64,000 nucleotides of DNA. Source: Acidobacteriota bacterium (GTDB lineage: Bacteria; Bacillota; Syntrophomonadia; Syntrophomonadales; DTU052). The DNA is taken from the NCBI GenBank assembly GCA_050259595.1, contig JBLNAX010000068.1:3905-67904 (forward strand), read 5' to 3'. Each line of letters opens with the position of its first letter. Within the stretch, counting starts at the first letter, position 1. Below, one piece after another: positions 404 through 50,000 of the stretch. The position numbers and the translations under genes are program-made. Under the pieces are notes generated by a model. It was given only the letters and a program-made list of their open reading frames with translations. It was not told where the DNA came from and ran no database searches.

Positions 404-726
404 ACAGCAGCATTTTTCGATAATTAATAATGAGATCCCTGGTTATAGGCTGGGGATTTCTAAATTTTTCTTGATGTTATTACATACAGTCGAAAGATGT
501 CAGTGCTGATCCGTGCCCAATATAGTGGATGTTGGAGAGCTTGTTCAACTAATATTTATGCTAGATAAATCTACTTTTTGTCCTCTTTTGTCGGTGCTAG
601 CTTAATGCCACTTTGACTCTTATGAAGTATATTTGTAAGACAGGATTAAATTTCCTGGGTTTCTACCTCAGTAAGTATTGGGTTAATCACATCTCGAAAA
701 AGAAGAATTTGAAAGGGGTCAGTGCT

Positions 727-2775: not shown

Positions 2776-2803
2776 TTTAATAGATTATTAACAGATTGCC
2801 AAA

Positions 2804-2831
2804 CCCCTGGCCGTATGGCCAGGGGTTTTTC
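2804..2831 (+). terminator. rho-independent terminator
   Basis: CCCCTGGCC-GTAT-GGCCAGGGG followed by TTTTT, 29 nt after the stop codon. Confidence 0.7.
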
Positions 2832-3127
2832 TCATCCTATGCACAGTCGTTTTTTGTCGGGAGGATTATGCCTTCAAAACCCACTTAATAAAGCATTTAG
2901 TAAACAACTGTCTGTGTTTTGGACAAACCAAAAGAGGTTTTGTGTCTGCTTTTGTCGCTACAAACATAGTGTTTCAAGGTTCTGCCTGCTGTATATTTAA
3001 AATGTAATGCTAATAATGCTTGCACTCCATTCATCGTTGCAGTACTTGCACTCAACCCTGCCGATACTCGGTAGATATATTCATATTTGAACTAATGGTG
3101 ATATGCACAATATTGGGAGGGATCGCA

Positions 3128-24341: not shown

Positions 24342-24416
24342 GCCGATGTGGCTCAGTGGCAGAGCAGCTGATTCGTAATCAGCAGGTCGGCGGTTCAAAT
24401 CCGCCCATCGGCTCCA
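24342..24416 (+). tRNA. tRNA-Thr(CGT)
   Basis: Cloverleaf GCCGATG/CATCGGC acceptor, TGGCTCAGTGGCAGAGCA D-arm, GCTGA-TTCGTAA-TCAGC anticodon arm (anticodon CGT), GGTTCAAATCC T-arm, encoded CCA. Confidence 0.9.
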
Positions 24417-24517: not shown

Positions 24518-25669
24518 TCATTTTTTGGTGCTTTCATTTTCATCTGGGATCTTGAGAACTGAACTGAGCCTCTCAACAGCTCGTTTTTTAAGCTTCTCTT
24601 TGACATGGCCATATGTATTTGCAGTGGTGCTCAGTGAGGCATGGCCCATTAGTTCTTGTATTACGCGCATATCCTCACCAGCTTCTAGAAGCAAAGAAGC
24701 ATAAGAATGGCGCAGCGAGTGGAATGTAATGTCTTTGTATTCCGGGTTTTCCTTTTCCAGCTTTTGAAGTAGAGATTTGAAATGCTTTGAGAGGTATTGG
24801 GGATCTACCATTCTGCCGTCTGGCCATGCAAAGACGAACCCTTCGTCAATATAACCGGTGCGGCATAGTTCCTTTTCTGCATCCTGACGGTTCTTATGAT
24901 TCTCTAAGATTGCCACAATATCTGAGGTTAGTGGAACAATCCGTTCGCCTTTTTTAGTCTTTGGGAGTTGATAAATAATCTTTGTCTTGCTAGGTGACTC
25001 AGGATCGTCATTAATGACTCTGCTAGCAGCTTCTCTGATTTCAATAATACCTTTATCCAAATTCACAAACTGCCAGCGGAGAGCTGCCAGCTCACCTACA
25101 CGTAGACCCGAACCAAGATCAAATAAGATCGCAGTGTACCATGGATCTTCTTGAATAGACTTAAGTAATTTGAAAGTCTGTTCAGAATCAAGGAAAGCCG
25201 CTTCCTTCTTTACTGGCCTCGGAGGAGTAGTTGCTAAGCAGGGGTTGCGGTATATTCTATCTTCTAAAACAGCCTGTTTAAGGGCTCCACTAAGTAGAAC
25301 ATGAAGGTACTCAATACTCCGAGCGGATAATGGCTGGCCTGTCTTCTTTGTTTTCTGTGTTTTCTTAGTGTTATAAAACCGTTGGATGTCAGAAGGTTGA
25401 AGATCTTTGAGCGGTATCTTATCGAAGTACGGTCTAATATGTATGCGGATTAATTGTTCGTAACTTCTACTGGTAGTAGGCCTAACATTGGTCTTATATG
25501 TTTCAAACCAGTATTGGACCCAAGCTCCAGCTGAAATTTGGCTAAAATCATGCATGACACCTTGATTATGCTGGTGTAACAAAGTCGTCATTTGTTTTTT
25601 CAACTCAGTTTTACTTTTGTTGTAAAGGGATTTGCGTCTTAGGGCGCCCGTTTCAGCATCTCGAAGCAT
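24518..25669 (-). CDS. tyrosine-type site-specific integrase
   Basis: C-terminal catalytic region [11 protein letters not shown] ... [40 protein letters not shown] (R, HxxR, H, Y), with an N-terminal SAM-like domain. It lies adjacent to tRNA-Thr. Confidence 0.9.
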
Positions 25670-33002: not shown

Positions 33003-33662
33003 TTAAGTACAGGCGCTTCCGCTTTGTATCGTGCGAGGATATCCCTGATAAGTTAGAAGAGCGTGCGCTTTGACTAACTTATAAAAAGTTGTAGGTTTAA
33101 GATTTAATTCATGCATTGCCAGTCTTGCAGTAATATTGCCTTCTTTCCACTTATAATAGACCTTCTCAAAATCACTTGGAAATTCAGCTTTGGGCCTGCC
33201 GAGATGTTTACCTTGAGCCTTGGCTATAGCAATTCCTTCAGCTTGTCGTTGTTTAATGTTCTCCCTCTCTTGTTGTGCCACATAAGCCAATACTTGAAGG
33301 ATTAAATCACTAATAAACGTTCCTAAAAGGTCTTTATGAAGCGTAGTATCAAGAAGTGACATATCCAATACTCTGATATCAGCTTTGGTATCCTGGGTAA
33401 TCTCCTGCCATTCATTGATTATTTCTCTGTAGTTTCGGCCTAGTCTATCAATAGACTTAATGATTAACAGATCGCCTTCACGCAAAGCATTCTTGAGAAT
33501 TTGGTATTGTGGGCGATTAAAATCTTTGCCGCTTTGCTTATCTAGAAGGATGTACCTTTCATCTACTCCTGCATCTACCATTGCTTGGATTTGCCTAGCC
33601 TCATTCTGGTCTTTATCACTAATCCTGCAGTAGCCGTAAGTTCTATTCTGCATTTCGAACAC
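33003..33662 (-). CDS. serine recombinase (resolvase/invertase family)
   Basis: YGYCRISDKDQNEARQ (catalytic Ser), the DLLIIKSIDRLGRN motif, and a C-terminal HTH. Confidence 0.88.
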   Translation of the reverse strand: MFEMQNRTYGYCRISDKDQNEARQIQAMVDAGVDERYILLDKQSGKDFNRPQYQILKNALREGDLLIIKSIDRLGRNYREIINEWQEITQDTKADIRVLDMSLLDTTLHKDLLGTFISDLILQVLAYVAQQERENIKQRQAEGIAIAKAQGKHLGRPKAEFPSDFEKVYYKWKEGNITARLAMHELNLKPTTFYKLVKAHALLTYQGYPRTIQSGSACT

Positions 33663-33866
33663 CCCCTAAGATGCTATACTCTTATTATATCGATGGTGTT
33701 CGTAAAAGTATATATAATTTACGAATATGTACGCTTATTATTTATGGCCTTTACGGTCGCGAATAAGTGTAATTATAGTGGGCATTTGGGATGTTCGCAA
33801 AGGTGTACCTTTATGGTCGTTGTAAGATCTAGTATGTAAAATGAGGATTTATCAAGATAGGGTTAA

Positions 33867-33920
33867 GGCTACCGAACCGTATTATATCTGGTCCGGATCG
33901 CAAGATATGAACTCGGACAT
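33867..33920. repeat. decayed copy of the tRNA-Arg(TCT)/tRNA-Pro(TGG) junction (direct repeat of 34877-34930)
   Basis: GGCTACCGAACCGTATTATATCTGGTCCGGATCGCAAGATATGAACTCGGAC compared with GGCTACCGACCTGTATTTTATCTGGTCCGGGTGGCAAGATTTGAACTCGCAG. About 44 of 54 positions are identical, at an offset of 1010 bp. Confidence 0.7.
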
Positions 33921-34040
33921 CAACGCTACTAGGATTTATTTGTCAGCCATAAAGTAGCCGGTTGCAATTGAATTAATCAAAGTCCATAGAAAACAAAAGC
34001 CGCACCTTGATTAGGTGCGGCGGTGTTGATAATCTTAAAT

Positions 34041-34343
34041 CTATTGATGTTGGGGTAAGAAATCAATTCTAACTCTGGCATCAAGAACCTCCGCAATTCG
34101 GGTTAGGGTTTGCAGGGTGATATTTTGATTACCCTTTTCAATTCTTGCGATTGTTGATTGTTTAGTGCCCAGCGCTTTCGCCAATTGTTCTTGTGTCCAT
34201 CCTTTTTCAATGCGTAAAGCTATGATCTGCCGCGTTATTTGATACTCGGGTTCGCTCTCGGCCCATTCTTTAGCGAATTGCGGGTCTTTAATCAAGTTTT
34301 TCTTAATATAGTTTTTCAAATCACTCATTGGTGTTACCTCCAA
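34041..34343 (-). CDS. XRE-family HTH antitoxin (HigA-like)
   Basis: GWTQEQLAKALGTKQSTIARIEKGNQNITLQTLTRIA helix-turn-helix. It lies directly downstream of the toxin gene with an 8-nt gap. Confidence 0.8.
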   Translation of the reverse strand: MEVTPMSDLKNYIKKNLIKDPQFAKEWAESEPEYQITRQIIALRIEKGWTQEQLAKALGTKQSTIARIEKGNQNITLQTLTRIAEVLDARVRIDFLPQHQ

Positions 34344-34351
34344 ATAGAAGC

Positions 34352-34693
34352 CTATGTATTTGATAAATAGGCTTTAAGTCGTTGTTCCGCTAGTTTCAAT
34401 TCAGCGTCAGGAAGCTTACGTGTTTTCTTAATAAATCCACTTAACAGTAACAGTATTTTACCGGCAACAACTGAGAAGAGGATGCGATATTGATTACCCT
34501 GAAACACGGTTCTTAGTTCCCATATATTTCGACCAATGTTGCTAACTAAGGGAAAACCGAGATCAGGACCAAACTCCTCTAACAAAAGAAGATTTCTCAG
34601 TATTTTAGCCCGAGCCTTAGCGTTTTGAGCATCTAAGAACTCACTAACCGGCTCGTTACGGCCTTCTTGGTAAAATGTTAATTCCCATGCCAT
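34352..34693 (-). CDS. type II toxin, RelE/HigB superfamily (phage Gp49-like)
   Basis: WELTFYQEGRNEPVSEFLD...NIWELRTVFQGNQYRILF...LLLLSGFIKKTRKLPDAELKLAEQR is the typical Gp49/HigB-2 pattern. Confidence 0.8.
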   Translation of the reverse strand: MAWELTFYQEGRNEPVSEFLDAQNAKARAKILRNLLLLEEFGPDLGFPLVSNIGRNIWELRTVFQGNQYRILFSVVAGKILLLLSGFIKKTRKLPDAELKLAEQRLKAYLSNT

Positions 34694-34811
34694 GGTTATA
34701 TTATATCATATATGCTATATTGTCTCCAGATGTACCAATTTGATTCGAGTTCTTGCTGCTCGCGTCACCAATTCGCACTAGTAGGGAAGCAAAGGAGCCG
34801 TTTTTGTATTT

Positions 34812-34888
34812 TGGCAGGCCGGACAGGATTCGAACCTGCATTAGGCAGTTTAGAAGACTGCTGCCTCGATCCATTAGGCTACCGACCT
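34812..34888 (-). tRNA. tRNA-Arg(TCT)
   Basis: Minus-strand cloverleaf with anticodon arm GCAGT-CTTCTAA-ACTGC, T-arm GCAGG-TTCGAAT-CCTGT, and encoded CCA. Confidence 0.8.
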
Positions 34889-34898
34889 GTATTTTATC

Positions 34899-34975
34899 TG
34901 GTCCGGGTGGCAAGATTTGAACTCGCAGTCTCGTGGTCCCAGGCCACGCGGGATACCAAGTTACCCTACACCCGG
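34899..34975 (-). tRNA. tRNA-Pro(TGG), atypical C at position 33
   Basis: Acceptor CGGGTGT.../...CACCCGG-A-CCA. Anticodon arm CGTGG-CCTGGGA-CCACG. The reading is confirmed by the track translation SWSQATR on the plus strand. Confidence 0.75.
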
Positions 34976-34983
34976 AGGAATTA

Positions 34984-35061
34984 TGGTGTCGGAGGCGAGA
35001 GTCGAACTCGCAAAACTGCGGGTTTGAGCCGCATATGTATGCCTGATTCCATCACTCCGAC
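34984..35061 (-). tRNA. tRNA with Leu anticodon CAA but no long variable arm (78 nt)
   Basis: GTCGGAG-TG-ATGGAATCAGGCATACAT-A-TGCGG-CTCAAAC-CCGCA-GTTTT-GCGAG-TTCGACT-CTCGC-CTCCGAC-A-CCA. It has a 3-bp Leu-type D-stem and a 5-nt variable loop. Confidence 0.65.
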
Positions 35062-35062
35062 A

Positions 35063-35147
35063 TGGTAATGGTGGAGAGATTCGAACTCTCATGGCTATGG
35101 CCCCTGGTTTTTAAGACCAGGACGTATACCCGTTCCGTCACACCAGC
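35063..35147 (-). tRNA. tRNA-Leu(TAA)
   Basis: An 85-nt class II tRNA with anticodon arm CTGGT-CTTAAAA-ACCAG and a 13-nt variable arm GGGCCATAGCCAT. There is one 2:71 mismatch in the acceptor stem. Confidence 0.75.
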
Positions 35148-35154
35148 ATAATTA

Positions 35155-35230
35155 TGGAGCCGGTGAGAGGACTTGAACCCCTAATCTACTGATTACAAGT
35201 CAGCCGCTTTTTCCATTGAGCTACACCGGC
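35155..35230 (-). tRNA. tRNA-Thr(TGT)
   Basis: Acceptor GCCGGTG/CACCGGC, anticodon loop CTTGTAA, T-loop TTCAAGT, encoded CCA. Confidence 0.85.
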
Positions 35231-35237
35231 TAAAATA

Positions 35238-35314
35238 TGGTGCGGGAGGGAGGACTTGAACCTCCGATCTACCGGTTCAAAGCCGGTCGCGTTAACCAAT
35301 TACGCTACTCCCGT
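35238..35314 (-). tRNA. tRNA-Gln(TTG)
   Basis: Anticodon arm ACCGG-CTTTGAA-CCGGT and D-arm GCGTAATTGGTTAACGC. The 1:72 pair is weak or mismatched. Confidence 0.8.
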
Positions 35315-35323
35315 ATTTATCAT

Positions 35324-35399
35324 TGGCACGGGGCGAAGGGGTCGAACCTCCAGTCTCCTGGGTCAGAACCAGGCATGTTGCCAATTACACCAGCCCCGT
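35324..35399 (-). tRNA. tRNA-Gln(CTG)
   Basis: Anticodon arm CCTGG-TTCTGAC-CCAGG, an A1:U72 pair, encoded CCA. Confidence 0.8.
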
Positions 35400-35404
35400 A
35401 TTTT

Positions 35405-35480
35405 TGGTGCCCCCAGATGGACTCGAACCATCAACTAACCGGTTATGGGCCGGTAACTCTAACCATTGAGTTATGGGAGC
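35405..35480 (-). tRNA. tRNA(CAT), elongator Met or Ile2 type, atypical C33
   Basis: Acceptor GCTCCCA/TGGGGGC with a G1:C72 pair, so it is not initiator-like. Anticodon arm ACCGG-CCCATAA-CCGGT. The reading is confirmed by the track translation LTGYGPVT. Confidence 0.7.
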
Positions 35481-35484
35481 ATTT

Positions 35485-35562
35485 TGGGGTGACTGACGAG
35501 ACTTGAACTCGTAAAGACCGGGGTCACAGTCCGGCGCGTATACCATTTCCGCCACAGCCACC
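35485..35562 (-). tRNA. tRNA-His(GTG)
   Basis: Anticodon loop CTGTGAC. An encoded extra G(-1) lies opposite C73, the hallmark of bacterial tRNA-His. Confidence 0.88.
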
Positions 35563-35609
35563 GCGTTATTATCTTATCTCAGGGGGAAGATCCTCAAGAG
35601 ATTGTTATC

Positions 35610-35687
35610 TGGCTCCCCGAGCAGGGCTCGATCCTGCGACCCTCCGGTTAACAGCCGGGCGCTACCACCAAACTGAGCTATCGGGGA
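35610..35687 (-). tRNA. tRNA-Asn(GTT)
   Basis: Acceptor TCGGGGA/TCCCCGA, D-arm GCTCAGTTTGGTGGTAGC, anticodon loop CTGTTAA. The T-loop ATCGAGC is atypical. Confidence 0.8.
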
Positions 35688-35691
35688 ATAA

Positions 35692-35769
35692 TGGTGCCTC
35701 CGACAGGGATCGAACCTGTGACCCTTCGATTATCGGTCGAATGCTCTACCAAAACTGAGCTACAGAGGC
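35692..35769 (-). tRNA. tRNA-Ile(GAT), atypical C33
   Basis: Anticodon arm TTCGA-CCGATAA-TCGAA, D-arm GCTCAGTTTTGGTAGAGC, T-loop TTCGATC. Confidence 0.72.
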
Positions 35770-35774
35770 ATTAA

Positions 35775-35850
35775 TGGTGTCCCTGAGAGGACTCGAACCT
35801 CCAACTTACCGGTTAAAAGCCGGTTACTCTGGCCATTGAGTTACAGAGAC
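35775..35850 (-). tRNA. tRNA-Lys(TTT)
   Basis: Anticodon arm ACCGG-CTTTTAA-CCGGT, encoded CCA. Confidence 0.85.
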
Positions 35851-35854
35851 ATAT

Positions 35855-35929
35855 TGGTGCTCCCGGATGGACTTGAACCATCAGCCTCGCGGTTAAGAGC
35901 CGCTTGCTCTGCCATTGAGCCACGGAAGC
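35855..35929 (-). tRNA. tRNA-Lys(CTT)
   Basis: Anticodon loop CTCTTAA, T-arm GATGG-TTCAAGT-CCATC. Confidence 0.82.
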
Positions 35930-35939
35930 AAAACTATCA

Positions 35940-36014
35940 TGGTGCTGCGGGTTGGAATCGAACCAACTACGCCACGGGCTTCAACCGAGCGCTCTACCGG
36001 TGAGCTACCACAGC
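35940..36014 (-). tRNA. tRNA-Phe(GAA)
   Basis: Anticodon loop TTGAAGC with one U:U mismatch in the anticodon stem. D-arm AGCTCACCGGTAGAGC. Confidence 0.78.
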
Positions 36015-36020
36015 ATTATT

Positions 36021-36097
36021 TGGTGGACCTGACAGGACTCGAACCTGCAACCTTCTGCTTGCAAAGCAGTCGTTCTCGCCATTAGAACTACAGGCCC
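36021..36097 (-). tRNA. tRNA-Ala(TGC)
   Basis: Acceptor GGGCCTG with the G3:U70 Ala identity pair. Anticodon loop TTTGCAA. Confidence 0.85.
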
Positions 36098-36100
36098 ACA

Positions 36101-36176
36101 TGGTGCTCCCTGGTGGAATCGAACCACCGGTCTTATGCTTGTAAGGCATCTGCTCTTCTCACTGAGCTAAGGGAGC
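36101..36176 (-). tRNA. tRNA-Val(TAC)
   Basis: Acceptor GCTCCCT/AGGGAGC, anticodon loop CTTACAA, T-arm GGTGG-TTCGATT-CCACC. Confidence 0.85.
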
Positions 36177-36217
36177 CGGATAAATAAGAAGGGGTTGTGA
36201 CTTTAATTCACAACCCC
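36177..36217 (-). terminator. perfect 10-bp hairpin + U-rich tract between the two tRNA blocks
   Basis: GGGGTTGTGA-7 nt-TCACAACCCC. On the minus strand it is followed by TTCTTATTTATCCG, which runs straight into tRNA-Val. Confidence 0.45.
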
Positions 36218-36380
36218 TGGATTGGTCGTATTTTCGGTCACTTTAAGTATTCATGATCGTCTGTTTTGGGCATGTTGAGTTAATACGATAAACGGTTTTA
36301 TCGCTGTATTTCTGAATATTGTGTTCGTAATGCCCAAAGTTTTCACTGATTAATCTCCTATTCTTGTTTAGTATTAAAAC

Positions 36381-36470
36381 TGGCGGAGACGGAAGGACTC
36401 GAACCTTCAAACGCTGTTAACGTCACTGGGTTTCAAAGCCAGGCCCCGCCCCACTGGGGTCAACGTCTCC
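36381..36470 (-). tRNA. tRNA-Ser(TGA)
   Basis: A 90-nt class II tRNA with anticodon loop TTTGAAA, a C:C mismatch closing the stem, a long variable arm and discriminator G. The D-arm is poorly canonical. Confidence 0.65.
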
Positions 36471-36478
36471 TTGATTAA

Positions 36479-36566
36479 TGGAGGAAGAGGAGGGATTCGA
36501 ACCCACGGAACCTCACGGCCCTCCGGTTTTCGAAACCGGCGCATTAATCCTCTCTGCCAATCTTCC
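36479..36566 (-). tRNA. tRNA-Ser(CGA)
   Basis: An 88-nt tRNA with D-arm TGGCAGAGAGGATTAATGC, anticodon arm CCGGT-TTCGAAA-ACCGG and a 16-nt variable arm. There is one T-stem mismatch and one 7:66 mismatch. Confidence 0.72.
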
Positions 36567-36580
36567 TCAATGTTAAGTTC

Positions 36581-36675
36581 TGGCGGAGAGAGTGGGGGTC
36601 GAACCCACGCAGGCTGCTGCTAGCAACCCCTGGTGCCTTTCCAAGACACTCCCTTAGCCTCTTGGGTATCTCTCC
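36581..36675 (-). tRNA. tRNA-Ser(GGA)
   Basis: A 95-nt tRNA with acceptor GGAGAGA/TCTCTCC, anticodon arm GTGTC-TTGGAAA-GGCAC and a very long variable arm. Confidence 0.75.
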
Positions 36676-36682
36676 AAAAACA

Positions 36683-36773
36683 TGGCGGAGGATGTAGGAT
36701 TTGAACCTACGCAGGCGTTACCACCCCTAGCGGTTTAGCAAACCGCCCTCTTCAGCCACTTGAGTAATCCTCC
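36683..36773 (-). tRNA. tRNA-Ser(GCT)
   Basis: A 91-nt tRNA with acceptor GGAGGAT/ATCCTCC, anticodon arm GCGGT-TTGCTAA-ACCGC and a long variable arm. Confidence 0.78.
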
Positions 36774-36780
36774 GTATATT

Positions 36781-36857
36781 TGGTACGGACGAGAGGGGTC
36801 GAACCTCCAAAACTACGGGTCTAAGCCGCATACGTATGCCAGTTCCGTCACGTCCGC
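36781..36857 (-). tRNA. tRNA with Leu anticodon TAG but no long variable arm (77 nt)
   Basis: GCGGACG-TG-ACGGAACTGGCATACGT-A-TGCGG-CTTAGAC-CCGTA-GTTTT-GGAGG-TTCGACC-CCTCT-CGTCCGT-A-CCA. The reading is confirmed by the track translation WYGREGSNLQNYGSKPHTYASSVTSA. Confidence 0.65.
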
Positions 36858-36870
36858 ACGTTTTCAATTT

Positions 36871-36945
36871 TGGTTGCGGGCCCAGGAGTTGAACCAGGTT
36901 AATCCGAGTTATGAGCCCGGCGAAGATGCCGACCTTCCGCCCGCA
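36871..36945 (-). tRNA. initiator-like tRNA-Met(CAT)
   Basis: Anticodon arm CCGGG-CTCATAA-CTCGG with a G29-G31 run. The D-stem has an A11:U24 pair, and the 3' end is ...CCCGCAACCA as in tRNA-fMet. Position 1:72 is a U:A pair, and the T-stem has a U:U mismatch. Confidence 0.7.
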
Positions 36946-36946
36946 A

Positions 36947-37022
36947 TGGCGACCCCGACCGGATTTGAACCGGCGATCTCTGGCGTGACAAGCCAGCATT
37001 CTAGCCCCTGAACTACGGAGTC
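36947..37022 (-). tRNA. tRNA-Asp(GTC)
   Basis: Anticodon arm CTGGC-TTGTCAC-GCCAG, discriminator G, encoded CCA. Confidence 0.85.
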
Positions 37023-37029
37023 ATATTTA

Positions 37030-37116
37030 TGGAGGCGTGGACGGGGTTTGAACCCGCGCGGGCGCTATGCCCATCAGCTTGAAAGGCTGACCTCTGTACC
37101 ATTCGAGTACCACGCC
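37030..37116 (-). tRNA. class II-shaped tRNA (87 nt, long variable arm) carrying Glu anticodon TTC
   Basis: GGCGTGG-TA-CTCGAATGGTACAGAG-G-TCAGC-CTTTCAA-GCTGA-TGGGCATAGCGCCCGC-GCGGG-TTCAAAC-CCCGT-CCACGCC-T-CCA. It has a 3-bp D-stem, a 16-nt variable arm and discriminator U. Confidence 0.6.
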
Positions 37117-37129
37117 ATGCTGTTATATA

Positions 37130-37217
37130 TGGTGCCACCGGAGGGAATCGCACCCACTCGGGTCAATTGACGACGGATTTACAGTCCGCCCCGTCTGCTT
37201 TAACGGTCTACGATGGC
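37130..37217 (-). tRNA. tRNA-Tyr(GTA)
   Basis: An 88-nt class II tRNA with anticodon arm GCGGA-CTGTAAA-TCCGT, a 15-nt variable arm and discriminator A. The T-loop TGCGATT is atypical. Confidence 0.78.
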
Positions 37218-37226
37218 ATATTCATT

Positions 37227-37304
37227 TGGAGAACGGGGTGGGATTCGACCCCACGAGTCCATGGTTTTGCAGACCAGGCCATTAGGCCTCTCTGGCACCC
37301 GTTC
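37227..37304 (-). tRNA. tRNA-Cys(GCA)
   Basis: Anticodon loop CTGCAAA and discriminator U73 (a Cys identity element). Acceptor GAACGGG/CCCGTTC. The T-loop GTCGAAT is atypical. Confidence 0.75.
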
Positions 37305-37312
37305 ATATATTT

Positions 37313-37386
37313 TGGAGCGAGCAGTCAGACTCGAACTGACATCTCTGGCTTGGAAGGCCAGGGCACACCCTTTATACCATACCCGC
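37313..37386 (-). tRNA. tRNA-Gly(TCC)
   Basis: A 74-nt tRNA with anticodon arm CTGGC-CTTCCAA-GCCAG, a 4-nt variable loop and discriminator U73. Confidence 0.82.
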
Positions 37387-37396
37387 TTAATTATCA

Positions 37397-37475
37397 TGGC
37401 ACCGGTGGAGAGATTCGAACTCCCAAAACCTACTGGTTCGTAGCCAGCCGCTCTCTCCAGTTGAGCTACACCGGC
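37397..37475 (-). tRNA. tRNA-Arg(ACG)
   Basis: Anticodon arm GCTGG-CTACGAA-CCAGT, D-arm GCTCAACTGGAGAGAGC and a 7-nt variable loop. Confidence 0.8.
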
Positions 37476-37480
37476 ATTAT

Positions 37481-37571
37481 TGGCACGGGTGGAAGGAGTT
37501 GAACCCTCACAAGCCTTATAGGGGCCTTCGGATTTGGAGTCCGCTGCTCTGCCAGTTGGAGCTACACCCGT
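37481..37571 (-). tRNA. tRNA-Trp(CCA) carrying a 19-nt extra arm in the variable region (91 nt)
   Basis: ACGGGTG-TA-GCTCCAACTGGCAGAGC-A-GCGGA-CTCCAAA-TCCGA-[AGGCC-CCTATAA-GGCTT-GT]-GAGGG-TTCAACT-CCTTC-CACCCGT-G-CCA. The reading is confirmed by the minus-strand track translation CTGVAPTGRAADSKSEGPYKACEGSTPSTRA. Confidence 0.65.
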
Positions 37572-37580
37572 GCATTCGTA

Positions 37581-37618
37581 TATAAAAATAAAACCGAGTG
37601 CGATGTACACACTCGGTT
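37581..37618 (-). terminator. hairpin + U-tract just upstream of the first tRNA of the array
   Basis: AACCGAGTG-9 nt-CACTCGGTT. On the minus strand it is followed by TTATTTTTATA, ending about 10 nt before the tRNA-Trp 5' end. Confidence 0.45.
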
Positions 37619-37937
37619 CGAAAAATCTTCTACTTCGGTTGTTAATCACACGTTACGTTATTCGCTTCCCCCTGTTTGATCCCAGCATTGTATATTGTTT
37701 CGGATCGAATTGGGCGCAGTCTATCGAGCCAGAGAACAGACGCTCTGACCAGCGAATACTGAGACTATTTTGTTGGCTATTCAATAAGTGCCTCAACGCT
37801 GCACCCTCCTCTTGTATACAATATACATTAGCATAATAAAACCAAAACAATACAATGTCAACCACTTTTTAGATATTTGTCCTATATTATCATTTTCAAT
37901 TCAGTTCGGAAAGTCTGTAGAACTGTAGGTGATCGGT

Positions 37938-40283: not shown

Positions 40284-41531
40284 ATGGCTAAACTAGATGA
40301 TTTCAATAACATAAACATCCCGGTGCGGTTTTTCCGGAACCCAGACGTCAAATTTGAGAACAATGCTCTGGATGAACTCAAGAGTTTGCTCAATATATCT
40401 AGTACAATTGAGCACTTAAAAGAGTCAGATAAGGGTTTCTTTTCAAATATTGATGCTTGTGTTGAGGAGGTGGCCATTACCCCCGATTTTCATAAAGGAG
40501 CAGGAATTCCTATTGGGACTGTTATGCTGACCCAGGGATTGATTATACCGCAAGCCATCGGAAACGATGTTAATTGTGGGATGAGACTCTATGTAACTGA
40601 CCTTAATGAAGAAGCGATAAGATCAGTACTGCCGTATTTGGAGAATACAATTCGCCACGTCTTCTTTGAAGGTGGACAGAACATTCCAATGACTCGTATT
40701 CAGAGAGAAGCACTTTTAAAAGAAGGTCTTTTAGGGCTTCTTGAGACATCAAATATAGGCCAGAAAAAAGGCTTATGGCAATATTACCAGCGTGAGCAGC
40801 AGGAGTCCGAGATTGAGAATGTAAGCAGTATGGGGTCAATGATTGCTGATTCAGTGATTGGTCTGGACGATTTCTTAGGGATTAACGAGCTCTCGTACGA
40901 TGGGCAGATTGGTTCAATTGGAGGCGGAAATCACTTTGTTGAAGTCCAGACTGTCTCAAAGATATTGGATAGCCAGGTTGCTAATGCCTGGGGCTTGAAG
41001 AAAGATCAGATAGTGATAATGATTCACACTGGTTCGGTAATGATAGGACACCACAGTGGTTCATATTTTAAGGATATTGTTAAGAGTATCTACCCTAAGA
41101 ATCTTAAACATCCCGATAATGGTATATACATATTGCCGGATTCTGAGCAGTTCATTAATCAGTGGGATATGTTTTGGAACCTGCTGTCAAACGCTGCTAA
41201 CTTTGCGTTTGGTAACCGCCTATTCCTTGGTCTAATGCTTAAAAGGGCATTAGTTGAGACTATTGGGGAGTTTGATTGCAGGTTACTATATGATTCCCCC
41301 CATAACCTGGTTTGGAAAGAGAATATAGATGGCAAGAGCTATTATCTGCACCGGAAGGGTGCCTGCCCGGCTAGGAGCATGAGCCAAATGACAGGAACCA
41401 AGTTCGAGTATTATGGGGAACCTGTATTCCTGCCTGGGTCGATGGGATCATCCAGTTTTGTACTCGCAGGTCTTGGTAATAGGCAGAGCCTTTTTAGTGC
41501 TAGTCATGGTGCCGGGAACCTATCTTGTTGA
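40284..41531 (+). pseudogene. rtcB: RtcB-family RNA ligase, apparently C-terminally truncated
   Basis: RtcB motifs are present: PDFHKGAGIPIGTV, NDVNCGMRL, GGGNHFVEVQ, HTGS, HNLVW, LPGSMGSSSFVL and SHGAGN. The ORF stops 4 codons after HGAG, whereas family members normally continue for about 60-80 aa. Confidence 0.6.
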
Positions 41532-44422: not shown

Positions 44423-46975
44423 ATGGGTTTTGGTAAACGGTTAACAAATCTATTAGCGATTATTTTGGCAGTGCTTCTTTTAGCCAATATTCCGGTAATA
44501 GCTAAGACGTACACTTATGATAGTCAGCACAGAATAAAGACTGTAACCTATGACAATGGAATGACGATTGAGTATACATACGATGCTGCCGGTAACATAA
44601 TTAGCGTCAAACAGACCGGCGGAGTTAACATACCGGTAAGCGGGATTACACTCGACAAGCATGAGCTGGCATTTACTACCGGCGATCCTGCGATAACCCT
44701 CAAGCCAACCATCTCTCCCACTAATGCAACAAACAAGAGCGTTTATTGGAACTCAAGTAATGATCAAGTTGCATCAGTAAGTAACGGACTTGTAACACCG
44801 CTGGCTAAAGGAACATCTATTATTACAGTTACAACCACAGATGGCGGCTTCCAGGATAGGTGTACGATAACTGTATCTGACCCGCACATTCCGGTGACAG
44901 GCGTCGCCTTAAATAAGCATTCATTATCATTATTAGTTAATGGGCCTACAGCTTTACTTATTCCCAATGTAATTCCTCAAGAAGCAGTTGATAAAAGTGT
45001 ATATTGGACCTCGAGTAATGAAGTCGTAGCAACTGTATATGATGGAGTTGTATCTCCTCTTGCTCGAGGCATATCGACAATTACGGTGACTAGTTATGAA
45101 GGTGGATTTAAAGATACTTGTGAAGTGAATGTTACTGGACCTGATTCGGACGAAAACACAACACTACTGATACATATGGATGGAGACGAGAACGGCACTG
45201 CGTTTAGTGACCTGAAAGGGAAAGCAATAACCAGAGCCGGAGATACTTCCACTAAGACCGGAGTGAAACAAATCGGAAGTGCAGCCGGGTACTTTGATGG
45301 CTACGGAGACTACCTGAGCATGGTTGACAGTGAAGACTTTAATGTAGGAGCCCAGGATTTCACCTTGGACTTCTGGATGAGGACGAATACCAGCGGCAGG
45401 CAGGTAATCTTCAGTCAAAACGACTACTATTCCAGCAACTCGAGCCGCGGCTTGTATGCAGAAATCACATCTGACAACCGCGTGCAGGCTGGATTTGCCA
45501 GCGAATCAAACTTCAATGGAATCATCTCCAATAACCAGGTAACCTGGGGCAGATTCTATCACTTAGCGCTGGTCAGAAAAGGCAATACCATGATGCTATT
45601 CATAGACGGGAAGCTGGAAGGGACTAGGGATGTAACAGGCTTAACAGCCAACAATTCGACAAACCAATTTGTGATTGGCAGACCTGGTGAAAACACCAAC
45701 TACAGTTTCATGGGCTACATAGATGAGTTCAGGTTGAGTAAAGGAATAGGCAGATGGAACAGTGACTTTACGGTACCCAGCAGTCCATACACCTTGAGTA
45801 CAGTAGAAACAACCGGAGTGAGCTTAGACAAACATACAGTGAATCTAGATGCAGGTCAGATAGACAATCTGACTGCGGCAGTAACGCCGAACACAGCCAG
45901 CAACCAGAACGTAACCTGGAGTTCTAGCAACACATCTGTTGTAGAAGTGGACAGCAATGGCAGACTGACCGCGAAAGCGGCGGGAACAGCTGAGGTTACA
46001 GTCACCACAGCGGCTGGCAACTTTACTTATAAGTGCACGGTTACCGTAACCGGAAGCTCAATAGACGAAAACACAACTCTGTTGATCCACATGGACGGAG
46101 AAGAAAATGCAACCGCATTTAGTGATCTGAAAGGTAAAGCAATAACCCGAGCCGGAGATACTTGCACTAAGACCGGAGTAAAACAGATCGGAAGTGCAGC
46201 CGGGTACTTTGATGGCTACGGAGACTATCTGTCAATGGCCGACAGTGAAGACTTTAACGTGGGAGCCCAGGATTTCACATTGGATTTCTGGTTAAAGATT
46301 AGTACCAGCGGCAGGCAGGTGATCTTTGGTCAAAATGACTATTATTCCAGCAACTCGAGCCGTGGTTTGTATGGGGAAGTAGGGTATGACAATCGAGTGC
46401 AGGCTGGATTTGCCAGCGGATCAAACTTCTATGGAATCATGTCTAGTACCCAGTTAATCACCAGCAAGTTTTATCATTTAGCTCTAGTGAGAAAAGGTAA
46501 CACAATGATGTTGTTCGTGGATGGCAAGTTGGAAGGGATTCGGGATGTAACAGGCTTAACAGCCAACAATTCGACAAACCAGTTTGTGATTGGCAGACCT
46601 GGTGAAAAAGCAGATTACTACCTCATGGGTTACATAGACGAGTTCAGGTTGAGTAAAGGAATAGGCAGATGGAACAGTGACTTTACATTACCTAACAGTC
46701 CGTACACCCTGAGCACAGTAGAAACAACAGGAGTAAGTCTGGACAAACACACTTTGAGTCTTAGTCCCACTCAGACAGACAAACTTACTGCGGTAGTATC
46801 GCCGAACACAGCTAGCAACCAGGCTGTAACTTGGAACTCGAGCAACACATCTGTTGTAGAGGTGGATAGCAATGGCAGGCTGACCGCGAAAGCAGCGGGA
46901 ACAGTTGAGATAACAGTAACCACATCAGCAGGTAACTTCATTGATAAATGTACAGTTACCGTTGTAGCGCCTTAG
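44423..46975 (+). CDS. secreted protein: N-terminal YD repeat, Big_2 domains and two LamG/concanavalin-like modules
   Basis: Signal peptide MGFGKRLTNLLAIILAVLLLANIPVIA, then TYTYDSQHRIKTVTYDNGMTIEYTYDAAGNIISV (YD repeats). Four Big_2 signatures are present. LamG_3-like modules occur twice (FDGYGDYLSM.DSEDFNVGAQDFTLDFW ... YHLALVRKGNTMMLF.DGKL ... IDEFRLSKG). Confidence 0.85.
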   Translation: MGFGKRLTNLLAIILAVLLLANIPVIAKTYTYDSQHRIKTVTYDNGMTIEYTYDAAGNIISVKQTGGVNIPVSGITLDKHELAFTTGDPAITLKPTISPTNATNKSVYWNSSNDQVASVSNGLVTPLAKGTSIITVTTTDGGFQDRCTITVSDPHIPVTGVALNKHSLSLLVNGPTALLIPNVIPQEAVDKSVYWTSSNEVVATVYDGVVSPLARGISTITVTSYEGGFKDTCEVNVTGPDSDENTTLLIHMDGDENGTAFSDLKGKAITRAGDTSTKTGVKQIGSAAGYFDGYGDYLSMVDSEDFNVGAQDFTLDFWMRTNTSGRQVIFSQNDYYSSNSSRGLYAEITSDNRVQAGFASESNFNGIISNNQVTWGRFYHLALVRKGNTMMLFIDGKLEGTRDVTGLTANNSTNQFVIGRPGENTNYSFMGYIDEFRLSKGIGRWNSDFTVPSSPYTLSTVETTGVSLDKHTVNLDAGQIDNLTAAVTPNTASNQNVTWSSSNTSVVEVDSNGRLTAKAAGTAEVTVTTAAGNFTYKCTVTVTGSSIDENTTLLIHMDGEENATAFSDLKGKAITRAGDTCTKTGVKQIGSAAGYFDGYGDYLSMADSEDFNVGAQDFTLDFWLKISTSGRQVIFGQNDYYSSNSSRGLYGEVGYDNRVQAGFASGSNFYGIMSSTQLITSKFYHLALVRKGNTMMLFVDGKLEGIRDVTGLTANNSTNQFVIGRPGEKADYYLMGYIDEFRLSKGIGRWNSDFTLPNSPYTLSTVETTGVSLDKHTLSLSPTQTDKLTAVVSPNTASNQAVTWNSSNTSVVEVDSNGRLTAKAAGTVEITVTTSAGNFIDKCTVTVVAP
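45149..46972 (+). repeat. in-frame tandem duplication, 2 x 915 bp (LamG + Big_2 unit)
   Basis: The unit starting GACGAAAACACAAC at 45149 recurs at 46064. Long identical runs are visible by eye, for example GGAAGTGCAGCCGGGTACTTTGATGGCTACGGAGACTA and AACAGGCTTAACAGCCAACAATTCGACAAACCA. Confidence 0.85.
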
Positions 46976-47011: not shown

Positions 47012-50000
47012 ATGAGTAGATTAAAGTTTAGGGGAATTGCCATATTGCTGGTTGCATTGATGATGGTATGCACCTGCACTAGTGATTACTTTAGCATTGT
47101 TAGGTCAATAAGCTCAGTATTAATGGCAGATGAGTCGACTCCACCCGATATTGTGCCTGATACTCTGGCGCCATCATCGCCAACTAATTTGACTATTGTT
47201 TCTCAAACATATGACTCTGTATCCTTAACATGGAATGCATCGACCGACGATTCAGGAGTTGTTGGATATATCGTTTATAAAAACGGAATGGAATATGGAG
47301 TAGCAACTGAGACAAACTATACCGATAATGGCTTATCCCCTGCCAATAACTATACCTATAGTGTAAAAGCACTTGACCAGTACGGTAATCTATCCGACGC
47401 CAGCAATGAAGTCTTAATACAAATACCGGAGCAGCCGGTTACCCCGCCAGCTGTTGCTCTTTCCGCACCCTCCAATTTAAGTATAACCTCACAAACATAT
47501 GATTCAGTGTCTTTGTTCTGGTCTGCCTCTACAGGTGGAACAGGTGTCGTTACATATGTTGTATATCGCAATGACGAGCAGATCAGCACAACAAACGATA
47601 CTGCTTATTCAGACAGTGGTTTGGTCTCTGGAACAAGTTATGTTTACTGCGTAAAGGCGGTCGACGCAACTGGGACAGAATCTGAGGCTAGCAACCAAGT
47701 GACCTGGAGTGATCAAAACAACCAGTCGCCTGGCGGGAATGATTCTAACTCGGGTGGTGCCGGTGGCGGGGGCGGAACGATAAGCCCAAATGGGTTAACT
47801 TCCCCAGTAAATCTTGCGGTCTATGAACAAACGAGTAGTTCTGTAACACTGACCTGGGATGCTGCAACTGGGACAGTCAACTATGTAGTATACCGGGATG
47901 GAAATGAAATAGGGACAGTTATCAATAACGCCTATACAGACAGCGGTTTAACAGTTGGGACTACATACAAGTACATTGTCAAAGCCGTCGATGAGGCTGG
48001 AAATGTTTCGCAAGTCAGCAATGAGGTGACCGTACAGATACCTGCGATTGAAACCGTAACGCCGCCATCAAACCTACAAGCGGTCGTTAATTCGTTTAAT
48101 TCTGTTAGCCTGAGTTGGACGGCTCCAAGCAGTGAGAATATTGTCGCATATGTCGTATACCGAAATGGTGAATCAATAACTACTGTAATAGGAACAGCTT
48201 ATGTCGACACGAAGTTGCCAGTGGCAACTACATATTCATATACAGTCAAAGCCGTGGACACTGACGGTAAAATTTCGCTAGGAAGCAATGAAGCATTTGT
48301 AACTCTTCCGGCTCTGCAGATAAAAAAAGTGCCCTTAGCAGCCGGGGATTCACACAGCCTGATAGTGAAGAGTGACGGCAAAGTGTGGTCATGGGGAAGC
48401 AATGGGGGTGGTCAGCTGGGGTCAGGTACCGCACAATCCACTATTCCAGTCAAAGTATTGGACTTGGTGGGAATTCAAGCGGTTTCTGGCGGCTATTATC
48501 ACAGCTTGGCTCTGGATAGTAACGGTTGGGTTTGGGCCTGGGGTGCAAATAGCAGTGGAGAGTTGGGGATCGGGTCTGAACTAGACAGCTCCAAACCTGA
48601 AAAGGTTCAGAACCTGGAAGGTATCATAGCGATTGAGGCAGGCAATTCGTACAGCTTGGCTTTGAAAAATGACGGCACTGTATGGGCATGGGGCTCAAAT
48701 TATAACGGTATATTCGGTAATAATGAATTAGATGAAAGCAATGTGCCAGTTCAAATTAATGGATTGGCTGGGGTTGTAGCAATTGCAGCCGGACAAAGCC
48801 ACTGCCTGGCTCTCATGAATGATGGCACGGTTTGGGGATGGGGATCGAATTCTGAAGGCCAACTTGCAGATAACAATGATGGTCAACCCGCTAGAATTTC
48901 TAATCTTTCGGGAATAACAGCAATTGCTGCAGGGGGATATCATAGCCTGGCGTTGGCTAGTAATGGTGTTGTTTGGTCATGGGGAAACAATGCCAGCGGA
49001 CAATTGGGAATTGGAATGCCGCCTTACTCAGCATATCAACCTACCGCAATGAATATTTCGGGGATAAAAGCTATAGCAGCAGGTGAAGAGTTTAGCCTTG
49101 CCCTTAAAGACAATGGGTCAGTGGTAAGTTTTGGTGCTAACTGGGGCGGTCAACTGGGAAATGATTCGACATACCAGTGGCAGACTTATGGGACAGTATC
49201 TCAAATCAATAATGTGACATCTATAGCATGTGGTGACACCCACGGACTTGCTGTGGAAAGCAGTGGCAAAGTTTGGGCTTGGGGCTGGAATAGTAATGGT
49301 CAATTGGGCAATGGTACTACCACACAAAGCATTGTCCCGGTCACTCTTGTGGACTCCCAACCCCCTACCGCTCCCAAGAATTTAGCGATGACGAACATGA
49401 CGGAATCATCTTTAACACTTGTATGGGAAGAATCCGATGATTTCTTTGGTGTAACTGGCTATGATATTTATCGTAATGGAACCAAAATAGCCAGCACCAG
49501 CTCAACCGGTTATGTTGACACATCAATCAATAAAGACTCTATTTATTCATACACAGTCAAAGCATTTGATGCAGCGGGCAATTATTCTTCTGCCAGCAAT
49601 GTTGCATCAAATGATGTCATGCCGCCGTCTGCACCTACAAACTTGACGGTTCTGGACGTGACCGGTTCCTTGGTGTCTCTGTCGTGGACTGTCAGCACTG
49701 ACAATGGAGCAGTGACAGGATACAAGATATTACGTAACGGAATCGAAATCGATTCATCAGCAACCAACAGTTACATAGATAACAATGTTTTAGCTGGAGA
49801 GACTTACGTTTATTGTGTAAAAGCCTTTGATGCAGCAAGTAACCTGTCTGATTCCAGCAATGAGGTTTCAGTTACCACTGCAGCACTCAACATCAACAAA
49901 GTTTATCTGTCGGCGGGAGGAAACCAGAGCGCCTGGCTGAAAAATAACGGTAGATTATTTATCTGGGGTAGTAATGTAAACGATCTTGATTATTCTGCAG

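Follow-up and report, generated by a model that had tools for sequence, protein, structure and literature searches.

The 64,000-nucleotide stretch of DNA analysed here in full (the window; contig JBLNAX010000068.1 of GenBank assembly GCA_050259595.1, positions 3,905 to 67,904) carries 30 tRNA genes by ARAGORN, 29 of which form one minus-strand array at 34812-37571. The array includes three leucine tRNA genes, and two of them, with the anticodons CAA and UAG, have a short variable loop (type I) in place of the long variable arm of class II (type II) tRNALeu. The third, Leu(UAA), adjoins the CAA gene and has retained the arm.

34984-35061, minus strand: type I tRNA-Leu, anticodon CAA, 78 nt including the encoded CCA (ARAGORN and RF00005)
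36781-36857, minus strand: type I tRNA-Leu, anticodon UAG, 77 nt including the encoded CCA (ARAGORN and RF00005)
35063-35147, minus strand: type II tRNA-Leu, anticodon UAA, 85 nt, 13-nt variable region (ARAGORN and covariance model)

Segment by segment, the CAA gene reads GUCGGAG UG AUG GAAUCAGGCAUA CAU A UGCGG CUCAAAC CCGCA GUUUU GCGAG UUCGACU CUCGC CUCCGAC A CCA, and the UAG gene reads GCGGACG UG ACG GAACUGGCAUA CGU A UGCGG CUUAGAC CCGUA GUUUU GGAGG UUCGACC CCUCU CGUCCGU A CCA. Pairing is complete in both, with 20 of 20 stem pairs formed (7 bp in the acceptor stem, 3 bp in the D-stem, 5 bp in the anticodon stem and 5 bp in the T-stem), and the two genes have in common U8-G9, the variable loop GUUUU, A73 and an encoded CCA. 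The Leu-type D-loop is 12 nt long in the CAA gene and 11 nt long in the UAG gene, and the latter has a G1:U72 pair as well as A37 following G36. Both genes match RF00005, the Rfam tRNA model, over its full length (model positions 1-71 of 71), scoring 50.8 bits (CAA) and 47.0 bits (UAG) against a gathering score of 29, with E-values in local searches of about 1e-10 and 1e-9, respectively. The covariance-model alignments give a variable loop of 5 nt and flag no non-canonical pairs in either gene; without the CCA, the genes are 74 nt (UAG) and 75 nt (CAA) long, which is too short for an extra arm. Broken stems, a missing T- or D-loop consensus and a low covariance score, the features of a tRNA pseudogene, were found in neither. 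Single-sequence minimum-free-energy folding did not recover the cloverleaf for these tRNAs, an outcome common for tRNAs and uninformative, which carries less weight than the covariance-model evidence and the covariation described below. An independent contig from a public metagenome assembly (Logan contig L413) is 100% identical to window positions 33491-36048 and spans the CAA gene.

A preliminary description of this DNA, made from the letters alone, had reported two Leu-anticodon cloverleaves with a Leu-type body and no long arm. ARAGORN, the RF00005 alignment and the stem pairing bear this out, and the possibility that it had raised, of a covariance model revealing a long arm overlooked by eye, was tested and left only the 5-nt loop in both genes. 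Its 13-nt variable region for the adjoining Leu(UAA) is likewise seen, as a 10-nt insertion in the covariance-model alignment; the long arm that defines class II tRNALeu, a stem-loop of more than 10 nt, is thus present in Leu(UAA) and absent from the CAA and UAG genes. The label 'bona fide' that it had attached to Leu(UAA) holds for this arm but less well for the acceptor stem, which has a C2:U71 mismatch (pair 2:71 is flagged by the covariance model) and a G1:U72 pair. The D-arms of the three Leu genes are, as it had stated, close to one another, but the order of its two strings was swapped relative to its own title: AUGGAAUCAGGCAUACAU belongs to the CAA gene and ACGGAACUGGCAUACGU to the UAG gene. 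As a side observation, the 13-nt arm of Leu(UAA) is about the size of the arm in phage T5 Leu(UAG).

We searched a genome collection and viral contigs with a pattern in which the Leu-type D-arm and the loop anchors are fixed and the variable loop is set to exactly 5 nt, with no constraint on the anticodon, the stems or bases 48 and 73. The UAG gene matches this pattern exactly and the CAA gene is off by one extra D-loop base. Matches were obtained at at least 120 loci in the genome collection and at least 118 loci in the viral contigs; the counts that follow refer to the matches, loci and arrays listed. The genome matches come from Cyanobacteria, Acidobacteriota, Planctomycetes, Bacteroidota, Proteobacteria, Firmicutes and Actinomycetes. 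A Leu anticodon is present in 256 of 263 matches (97%; UAG 138, UAA 51, CAA 39, CAG 18, AAG 8, GAG 2), A73 in 251 of 263 (95%) and U48 in 213 of the 214 distinct sequences, with neither base specified by the pattern. Among these 214 sequences the acceptor stem is perfect in 190, the anticodon stem in 199 and the T-stem in 207, and the commonest variable loops are AUUUU and, in second place, GUUUU. The CAA and UAG genes show the features of this family, namely a variable loop of 4-5 nt, a Leu anticodon combined with A73, and a Leu-type D-arm combined with U48. Both also have the full series of reported leucine identity elements: A73, U8 and A14 placed to form the U8:A14 pair, A15, U48, G18G19 and A20a. 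When the anticodon was masked and the genes were compared with 2,863 array tRNAs of all isotypes, 24 of the 25 nearest neighbours of the CAA gene and all 25 of those of the UAG gene were short Leu tRNAs.

Covariation was assessed on 105 family sequences with a mutual identity below 80%, in which each stem position is occupied by 4 to 6 pair types:

Acceptor stem: 95.8% paired; 55% after column shuffling; 40-49% after register slide
Anticodon stem: 97.5% paired; 47% after column shuffling; 33-40% after register slide
T-stem: 97.9% paired; 72% after column shuffling; 55-62% after register slide

Judged by this covariation and by the conserved bases, the arm-less tRNALeu is a widespread and coherent family of phage, plasmid and island tRNA arrays. 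In searches for closer relatives, megablast against GenBank phages gave no relatives of the array, a 33-nt pattern specific to the CAA and UAG genes had no match in viral contigs or metagenomes, and blastn with the whole array against plasmids and phages returned generic tRNA matches only. At position 37, the canonical bacterial tRNALeu(NAG) carries a G that TrmD methylates to m1G37. CUN-reading Leu tRNAs in the arrays mostly have A37 after G36, with 160 A versus 19 G in type I (a count inflated by the search pattern, which itself required A37) and 15 A versus 7 G in type II.

Loci with a type I Leu gene contain a median of 8 tRNAs in genomes and 14 in viral contigs, and in these loci the other long-arm isotypes have kept their arms: Ser is long in 204 of 205 genes and Tyr in 88 of 94. 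Among 63 arrays of 20 or more tRNAs, 42 have Leu genes of type I only; where type II Leu genes remain, most (56 of 87) are UAA isoacceptors, and this is also the layout of the window. This first locus set was selected for short Leu; a second viral sample was drawn by a generic D-arm motif of non-Leu tRNAs, and of its 43 Leu genes 12 (about 28%) are short, 4 intermediate and 27 long, alongside 30 long and one short among 31 Ser genes and 12 long among 15 Tyr genes. Some short Leu tRNAs of the second sample have another D-arm design, with U8-A9 and a 4-bp stem, so that more than one loss of the arm is probable. Separately, 27 of 118 genes called tRNA-Ile in the listed loci (L003-L240) are at least 82 nt long and may represent another arm- or intron-bearing class.

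The leucyl-tRNA synthetase (LeuRS) of E. coli relies on A73, on the A15:U48 Levitt pair, on G18G19 and A20a, and on tertiary contacts of the D-loop with the T-loop, and is independent of both the anticodon and the long arm, such that arm-less variants stay active (PMC9976931, PMC6614811). Since these reported elements are all kept in the window genes and in the family, we infer that the host LeuRS would charge the CAA and UAG tRNAs with leucine; the CAA tRNA would then read UUG, and the UAG tRNA would read CUA and CUG, possibly all CUN codons. Dispensability of the arm for LeuRS would likewise explain why it is lost from Leu and retained in Ser and Tyr, because only Leu would be free to lose it. 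Bacterial TyrRS (tyrosyl-tRNA synthetase) contacts the long arm, as in the Thermus TyrRS-tRNA structure. More speculatively, loss of the arm could avoid confusion with other long-arm tRNAs in new hosts, or could put the tRNA out of reach of nucleases whose target is the long variable arm. Septu and the PtuAB of retron-Eco7 cleave the variable loop of tRNATyr, and the tRNATyr of T5 resists by means of a different loop (PMC13096335); a Leu-specific example of an arm-directed nuclease was not found in a literature search. We also considered bacterial Schlafen as a threat specific to type II tRNAs and rejected it, as the enzyme that has been studied cleaves the anticodon arms of several type I tRNAs and shows no type II preference.

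A broader proposal would be that arm loss in Leu, but not in Ser or Tyr, is a general hallmark of phage and mobile tRNA sets, in which the arm-less form serves as an adaptive, portable Leu tRNA. We regard this as possible but doubtful. The form may make up about a quarter or more of viral Leu tRNAs, and it has probably arisen more than once. Such a tRNA would be chargeable by any host LeuRS, safe from being mistaken for a substrate by TyrRS or seryl-tRNA synthetase (SerRS), and immune to nucleases or toxins directed at long arms, and the window array would be a case of extreme variable-arm remodelling, since its Trp and 'Glu' genes have gained an arm (see below).

The same design is found in the array on the delta plasmid of Anabaena (Nostoc) sp. 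PCC 7120, a long tRNA array (L-array) also known as the 'trn operon' and the one such array with bench work behind it. Its four Leu genes (UAA, GAG, UAG and CAA; 75-78 nt) are all short-arm. They share with the window genes U8-G9, a D-stem of ACG/CGU or AUG/CAU, A73 and a variable loop of 5 nt whose last base is U48; their D-loop has 11 nt, as in the window UAG gene. Both arrays are long, uniformly oriented, carried by a mobile replicon and linked to rtcB (PMC8421152), and they share the order Gln(CUG)-Gln(UUG)...Leu(CAA)-Pro(UGG). Unlike Anabaena, the window has kept a long-arm Leu(UAA), and its array lies on a chromosomal, integrase-bearing island; the Leu genes of the two arrays have low identity outside the D-arm, and the CCA is not encoded in two of the Anabaena Leu genes. 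In Anabaena 23 of the 26 array tRNAs are charged in vivo and three are pseudogenes, and the missing Leu arm goes unmentioned in the text on the array (PMC8421152). The delta plasmid (L002, entry for 1253-1330 and 2430-2500) additionally carries a 71-nt gene with a Ser anticodon (CGA) and no long arm.

In cultured phages, a 77-nt query from Salmonella phage S124 matched 157 GenBank phage records, 154 of them near full length. These are mostly T5-like phages (Demerecviridae) of E. coli, Salmonella and Aeromonas, in which the gene is nearly always annotated as plain tRNA-Leu; TrudiRoth and HildyBeyeler are examples of T5-like phages that have it. Aeromonas phage AhP_Mru1 has three type I Leu genes, and the D-arm UGACGGAACUGGCAUACGUA and loop GUUUU of its Leu(UAG) are identical to those of the window UAG gene, while all stems differ and the changes are compensated; S124 has a near-identical D-arm and the same GUUUU loop. 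Unlike the window genes, the Leu genes of T5-like phages lie in lytic genomes, interspersed with small open reading frames (ORFs) and homing endonucleases. In phage T5 itself the Leu(UAG) is of type II, with an arm of 13 nt (L279, 7625-7709), and lies in an Ala/Leu/Ser(GGA) neighbourhood; S124 has a type I Leu(UAG) (L241, 5994-6070) in the corresponding neighbourhood, so both forms occur within one phage family; all stems differ between the two genes, which suggests gene replacement rather than simple deletion. As its own Leu(UAG) is type II, T5 was rejected as a direct precedent, and the suppressor experiment in the T5 record is irrelevant to the type I form.

A chromosomal precedent is the type I tRNALeu(CAA) of Streptomyces coelicolor, which is leucylated by its own LeuRS (PMC6614811). 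It resembles the window genes in design, with a 5-nt variable loop, coexisting type II isoacceptors and a single LeuRS, but differs in being a chromosomal housekeeping gene with the loop ACAGC and C48 instead of U48; moreover, A73 is no identity element there, and charging needs the leucine-specific domain of the Streptomyces enzyme (PMC6614811). Animal mitochondrial tRNALeu also combines a short variable loop with A73, and A73 and A14 are identity elements in that system (PMC9976931). Unlike the window genes it is organellar, served by a dedicated LeuRS and often structurally relaxed, and the data suggest no evolutionary link. The preliminary description had held tRNALeu to be class II essentially everywhere outside some organelles. 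This generalisation is contradicted by the at least 120 genome loci and at least 118 viral loci of the same design, the Anabaena array, the 157 cultured phage records, the roughly 28% of short-arm genes among Leu tRNAs of a viral sample picked regardless of Leu, and the leucylated bacterial type I tRNALeu already on record (PMC6614811).

Taken together, we consider it likely that the CAA and UAG genes encode functional type I leucine tRNAs, members of the widespread arm-less family, within a spare set of 29 genes for 20 amino acids that lies on an island with RtcB. A non-translational role is improbable. The tRNAs would in that case be decoys or sponges that absorb tRNA-targeting toxins or nucleases, or would act as signals, and would deliver no leucine; the authors of the Anabaena study propose array tRNAs as toxin-RNase sponges or non-canonical actors (PMC8421152), and the island carries the toxin-related genes Imm26, a Gp49/HTH (helix-turn-helix) pair and an RmrA/CapP-like protein. 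However, a decoy for enzymes that attack the host type II tRNALeu should retain the long arm. In addition, the Leu anticodons (in 97% of matches), A73, U48 and intact acceptor stems amount to a signature of charging and decoding that goes beyond mere folding, and type I genes are the sole Leu of an otherwise complete set in the 42 large arrays mentioned above.

Decay is quite unlikely to account for the missing arm. If the genes were class II relics with the arm deleted and with canonical paralogues active elsewhere, the perfect stems, canonical loops and encoded CCA of both would not be expected, nor would the maintenance of the design by compensatory change in upwards of 100 divergent sequences, drawn from phages and from many phyla, or the conservation of the anticodon, base 48 and base 73 in a search that specified none of them. 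Long arrays do add supernumerary and often silent genes, the Anabaena array does contain pseudogenes (PMC8421152), and the adjoining Leu(UAA) has an acceptor mismatch, all of which would fit with decay.

The preliminary description had seen the two genes as Leu tRNAs with the extra arm deleted, which can be taken as a recent, local loss from a copy of the adjoining Leu(UAA). The D-arms of the three window Leu genes are indeed very alike, and in the nearest-neighbour test the body of Leu(UAA) groups with type I Leu. Nevertheless, its acceptor, anticodon and T-stems differ from those of both genes, and the likeness of the D-arms reflects an identity constraint acting on the whole family, given that the identical D-arm with GUUUU in AhP_Mru1 and the near-identical one in S124 belong to distant phages; GUUUU and AUUUU are the commonest loops of the family in any case. 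We therefore hold a local origin to be very unlikely. Least credible is charging by a synthetase other than LeuRS for deliberate mistranslation of Leu codons, which was suggested to us by the odd acid-gel mobility of two Anabaena array tRNAs and the question of misacylation that it raised (PMC8421152), but which is at odds with the retention of all known bacterial Leu identity elements, with a body that resembles no other isotype, and with the Anabaena result, where mistranslation was looked for and none was detected (PMC8421152). Both the decoy and the other-synthetase options are thus disfavoured.

Several points weigh against reading the CAA and UAG genes as functional leucine tRNAs of a general family. 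Two enzymes, the LeuRS of E. coli and one from Streptomyces, were unable to charge the type I tRNALeu of S. coelicolor (PMC6614811), from which it follows that arm-less substrates are not accepted by every bacterial LeuRS. The Anabaena text leaves its three pseudogenes unnamed, so the charged set may exclude some of the Leu genes, and the T-arm of Anabaena Leu(GAG) (same L002 entry) is defective, making this gene a likely pseudogene. The family census is shaped by our own search pattern, by the ARAGORN length classes and by the matches listed, and the 28% estimate comes from 43 genes. No orthologous copy of the window array was found, conservation being at the level of the family, and the candidate promoter and terminators of the array (see below) are consensus matches only.

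The S. coelicolor type I tRNALeu was documented previously (PMC6614811), and the Anabaena and phage genes are in public records; in the literature searched, short-arm Leu tRNAs are nowhere described for the tRNA sets of phages or arrays. According to a review of tRNA identity from 2023, tRNALeu has a long arm everywhere except in animal mitochondria (PMC9976931), a rule that fails for phages and mobile elements on the data gathered here. The exception is confined to the one class II tRNA whose bacterial synthetase reportedly ignores the arm. For the window, an apparent anomaly becomes an annotation, that of two ordinary family members in a mobile array with an RNA-repair ligase. If followed up, the family could provide a natural test set for the handling of arm-less substrates by LeuRS, possibly a new angle on phage tRNAs versus tRNA-targeting defences, and compact Leu tRNA scaffolds for engineering.

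The array packs its 29 genes into 2.76 kb, all on the minus strand, with all 20 amino acids represented and the CCA encoded in every gene. Most spacers measure 2-15 nt; a single gap of about 200 nt divides blocks of 13 and 16 genes:

37833-37861, minus strand: sigma-70-like promoter candidate TTGACA-17-TATTAT, 11/12 matches, about 260 nt upstream of the first tRNA (consensus scan)
37591-37619, minus strand: terminator-like hairpin and T-run in the leader, downstream of the promoter candidate and ahead of the first tRNA (consensus scan)
36381-37571, minus strand: promoter-proximal block of 13 genes, in the order Trp, Arg(ACG), Gly, Cys, Tyr, Glu, Asp, Met, Leu(UAG), Ser(GCU), Ser(GGA), Ser(CGA), Ser(UGA) (ARAGORN and Rfam)
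36190-36218, minus strand: terminator-like hairpin and T-run in the roughly 200-nt spacer between the blocks (consensus scan)
34812-36176, minus strand: distal block of 16 genes, in the order Val, Ala, Phe, Lys(CUU), Lys(UUU), Ile, Asn, His, Met, Gln(CUG), Gln(UUG), Thr, Leu(UAA), Leu(CAA), Pro, Arg(UCU) (ARAGORN and Rfam)

L-arrays are defined by at least 20 tRNA genes at a density of at least two per kb, in the same orientation and spaced for co-transcription (PMC8421152, PMC4758250); they are horizontally transferred, hold supernumerary genes and are often silent but induced under translational stress (PMC8421152, PMC4758250), and rtcB is a reported neighbour and co-regulated partner (PMC8421152). 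In number, density and orientation of its genes the window array agrees with this definition, and with rtcB nearby it fits the published type. Expression would start at the upstream promoter candidate. The leader hairpin may be an attenuator, and the leader and spacer hairpins together may allow conditional read-through, which would be consistent with arrays that are silent until stress. Terminator-like sites are not enriched over shuffles in the array region.

The array appears to sit on an integrated mobile island in the chromosome, with the following landmarks:

24342-24416, plus strand: chromosomal tRNA-Thr(CGU) (ARAGORN)
24518-25669, minus strand: tyrosine integrase (Pfam PF00589 and PF14659), directly downstream of tRNA-Thr at the island boundary
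40284-41531, plus strand: RtcB-family RNA (tRNA) ligase (Pfam PF01139, E 1.8e-77; PHROG 1075, tRNA splicing ligase), 2.7 kb from the array

The tRNA-Thr(CGU) gene is the probable integration site. Upstream of it the island is flanked by argJ-argB-argD, and past the junction the guanine-cytosine content drops from about 0.48 to 0.35-0.43, as far as about 44 kb; we place the island at 24342-44400, the far boundary being only approximate. An att repeat of at least 12 nt was not found inside the window, either with the tRNA-Thr 3' end (up to 3 mismatches) or as 12-mers shared downstream. The low-GC island encodes a resolvase, the RmrA/CapP-like HTH-M78 protein, a ThiF/JAB (E1-E2-like) protein, Imm26, a WYL regulator and a DJ-1/PfpI protein. 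Directly 3' of the array, at 34041-34693 on the minus strand, lie genes for Gp49 (HigB-like) and HTH proteins, a likely toxin-antitoxin pair.

The closest relatives of the window RtcB (72% identity) do not adjoin arrays. Of 36 metagenome loci found with RtcB, none is array-adjacent except one with a small array, which itself has a 76-nt Leu(GAG). No RtcB relatives were found in viral contigs, neither the window RtcB nor its 347-aa neighbour protein is on record, and the window proteins were matched only in Logan assemblies of two metagenome runs.

Giant, Ig-like-domain-rich ORFs are present at 47012-61924 (plus strand, 4970 aa) and 6124-12768 (plus strand, 2214 aa), and further Ig-rich ORFs, several of 720-900 aa, at 613-5725 and 44423-46975 (both plus strand), such that the island is flanked by them on both sides; they look like bacterial surface proteins and not like phage structural ones. 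A lytic jumbo phage, considered as the origin of this DNA on account of the 30 tRNAs, the giant ORFs and Ig-domain PHROG matches, was ruled out by the junction of tRNA-Thr and integrase, the argJ-argB-argD flank and the low-GC island.

Further departures from the usual tRNA form occur within the array. In base 73, Ser(CGA) at 36479-36566 (minus strand) has U73 versus G73 in the other three Ser genes, and Gln(UUG) at 35238-35314 (minus strand) has A73 versus G73 in Gln(CUG). The sole Glu gene, Glu(UUC) at 37030-37116 (minus strand, 87 nt), combines a 3-bp D-stem and U73 with a variable region into which a stem-loop of 13 nt is inserted; with its anticodon masked it resembles no isotype, and it could be a class-switch tRNA. 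The sole Trp gene, Trp(CCA) at 37481-37571 (minus strand, 91 nt), departs from a normal Trp body, with its 4-bp D-stem and G73, by a variable-region hairpin of 16 nt and by a G27:A43 mismatch. None of the 146 Glu and 101 Trp genes in the first array set is long, and neither is any in the control sample. In a directed scan, 14 viral contigs (L396-L409) proved to have long-arm Trp(CCA) genes, whose hairpins are different and which end a conserved array of about 10 tRNAs. The long-arm Glu and Trp genes may be more unusual than the short-arm Leu genes.

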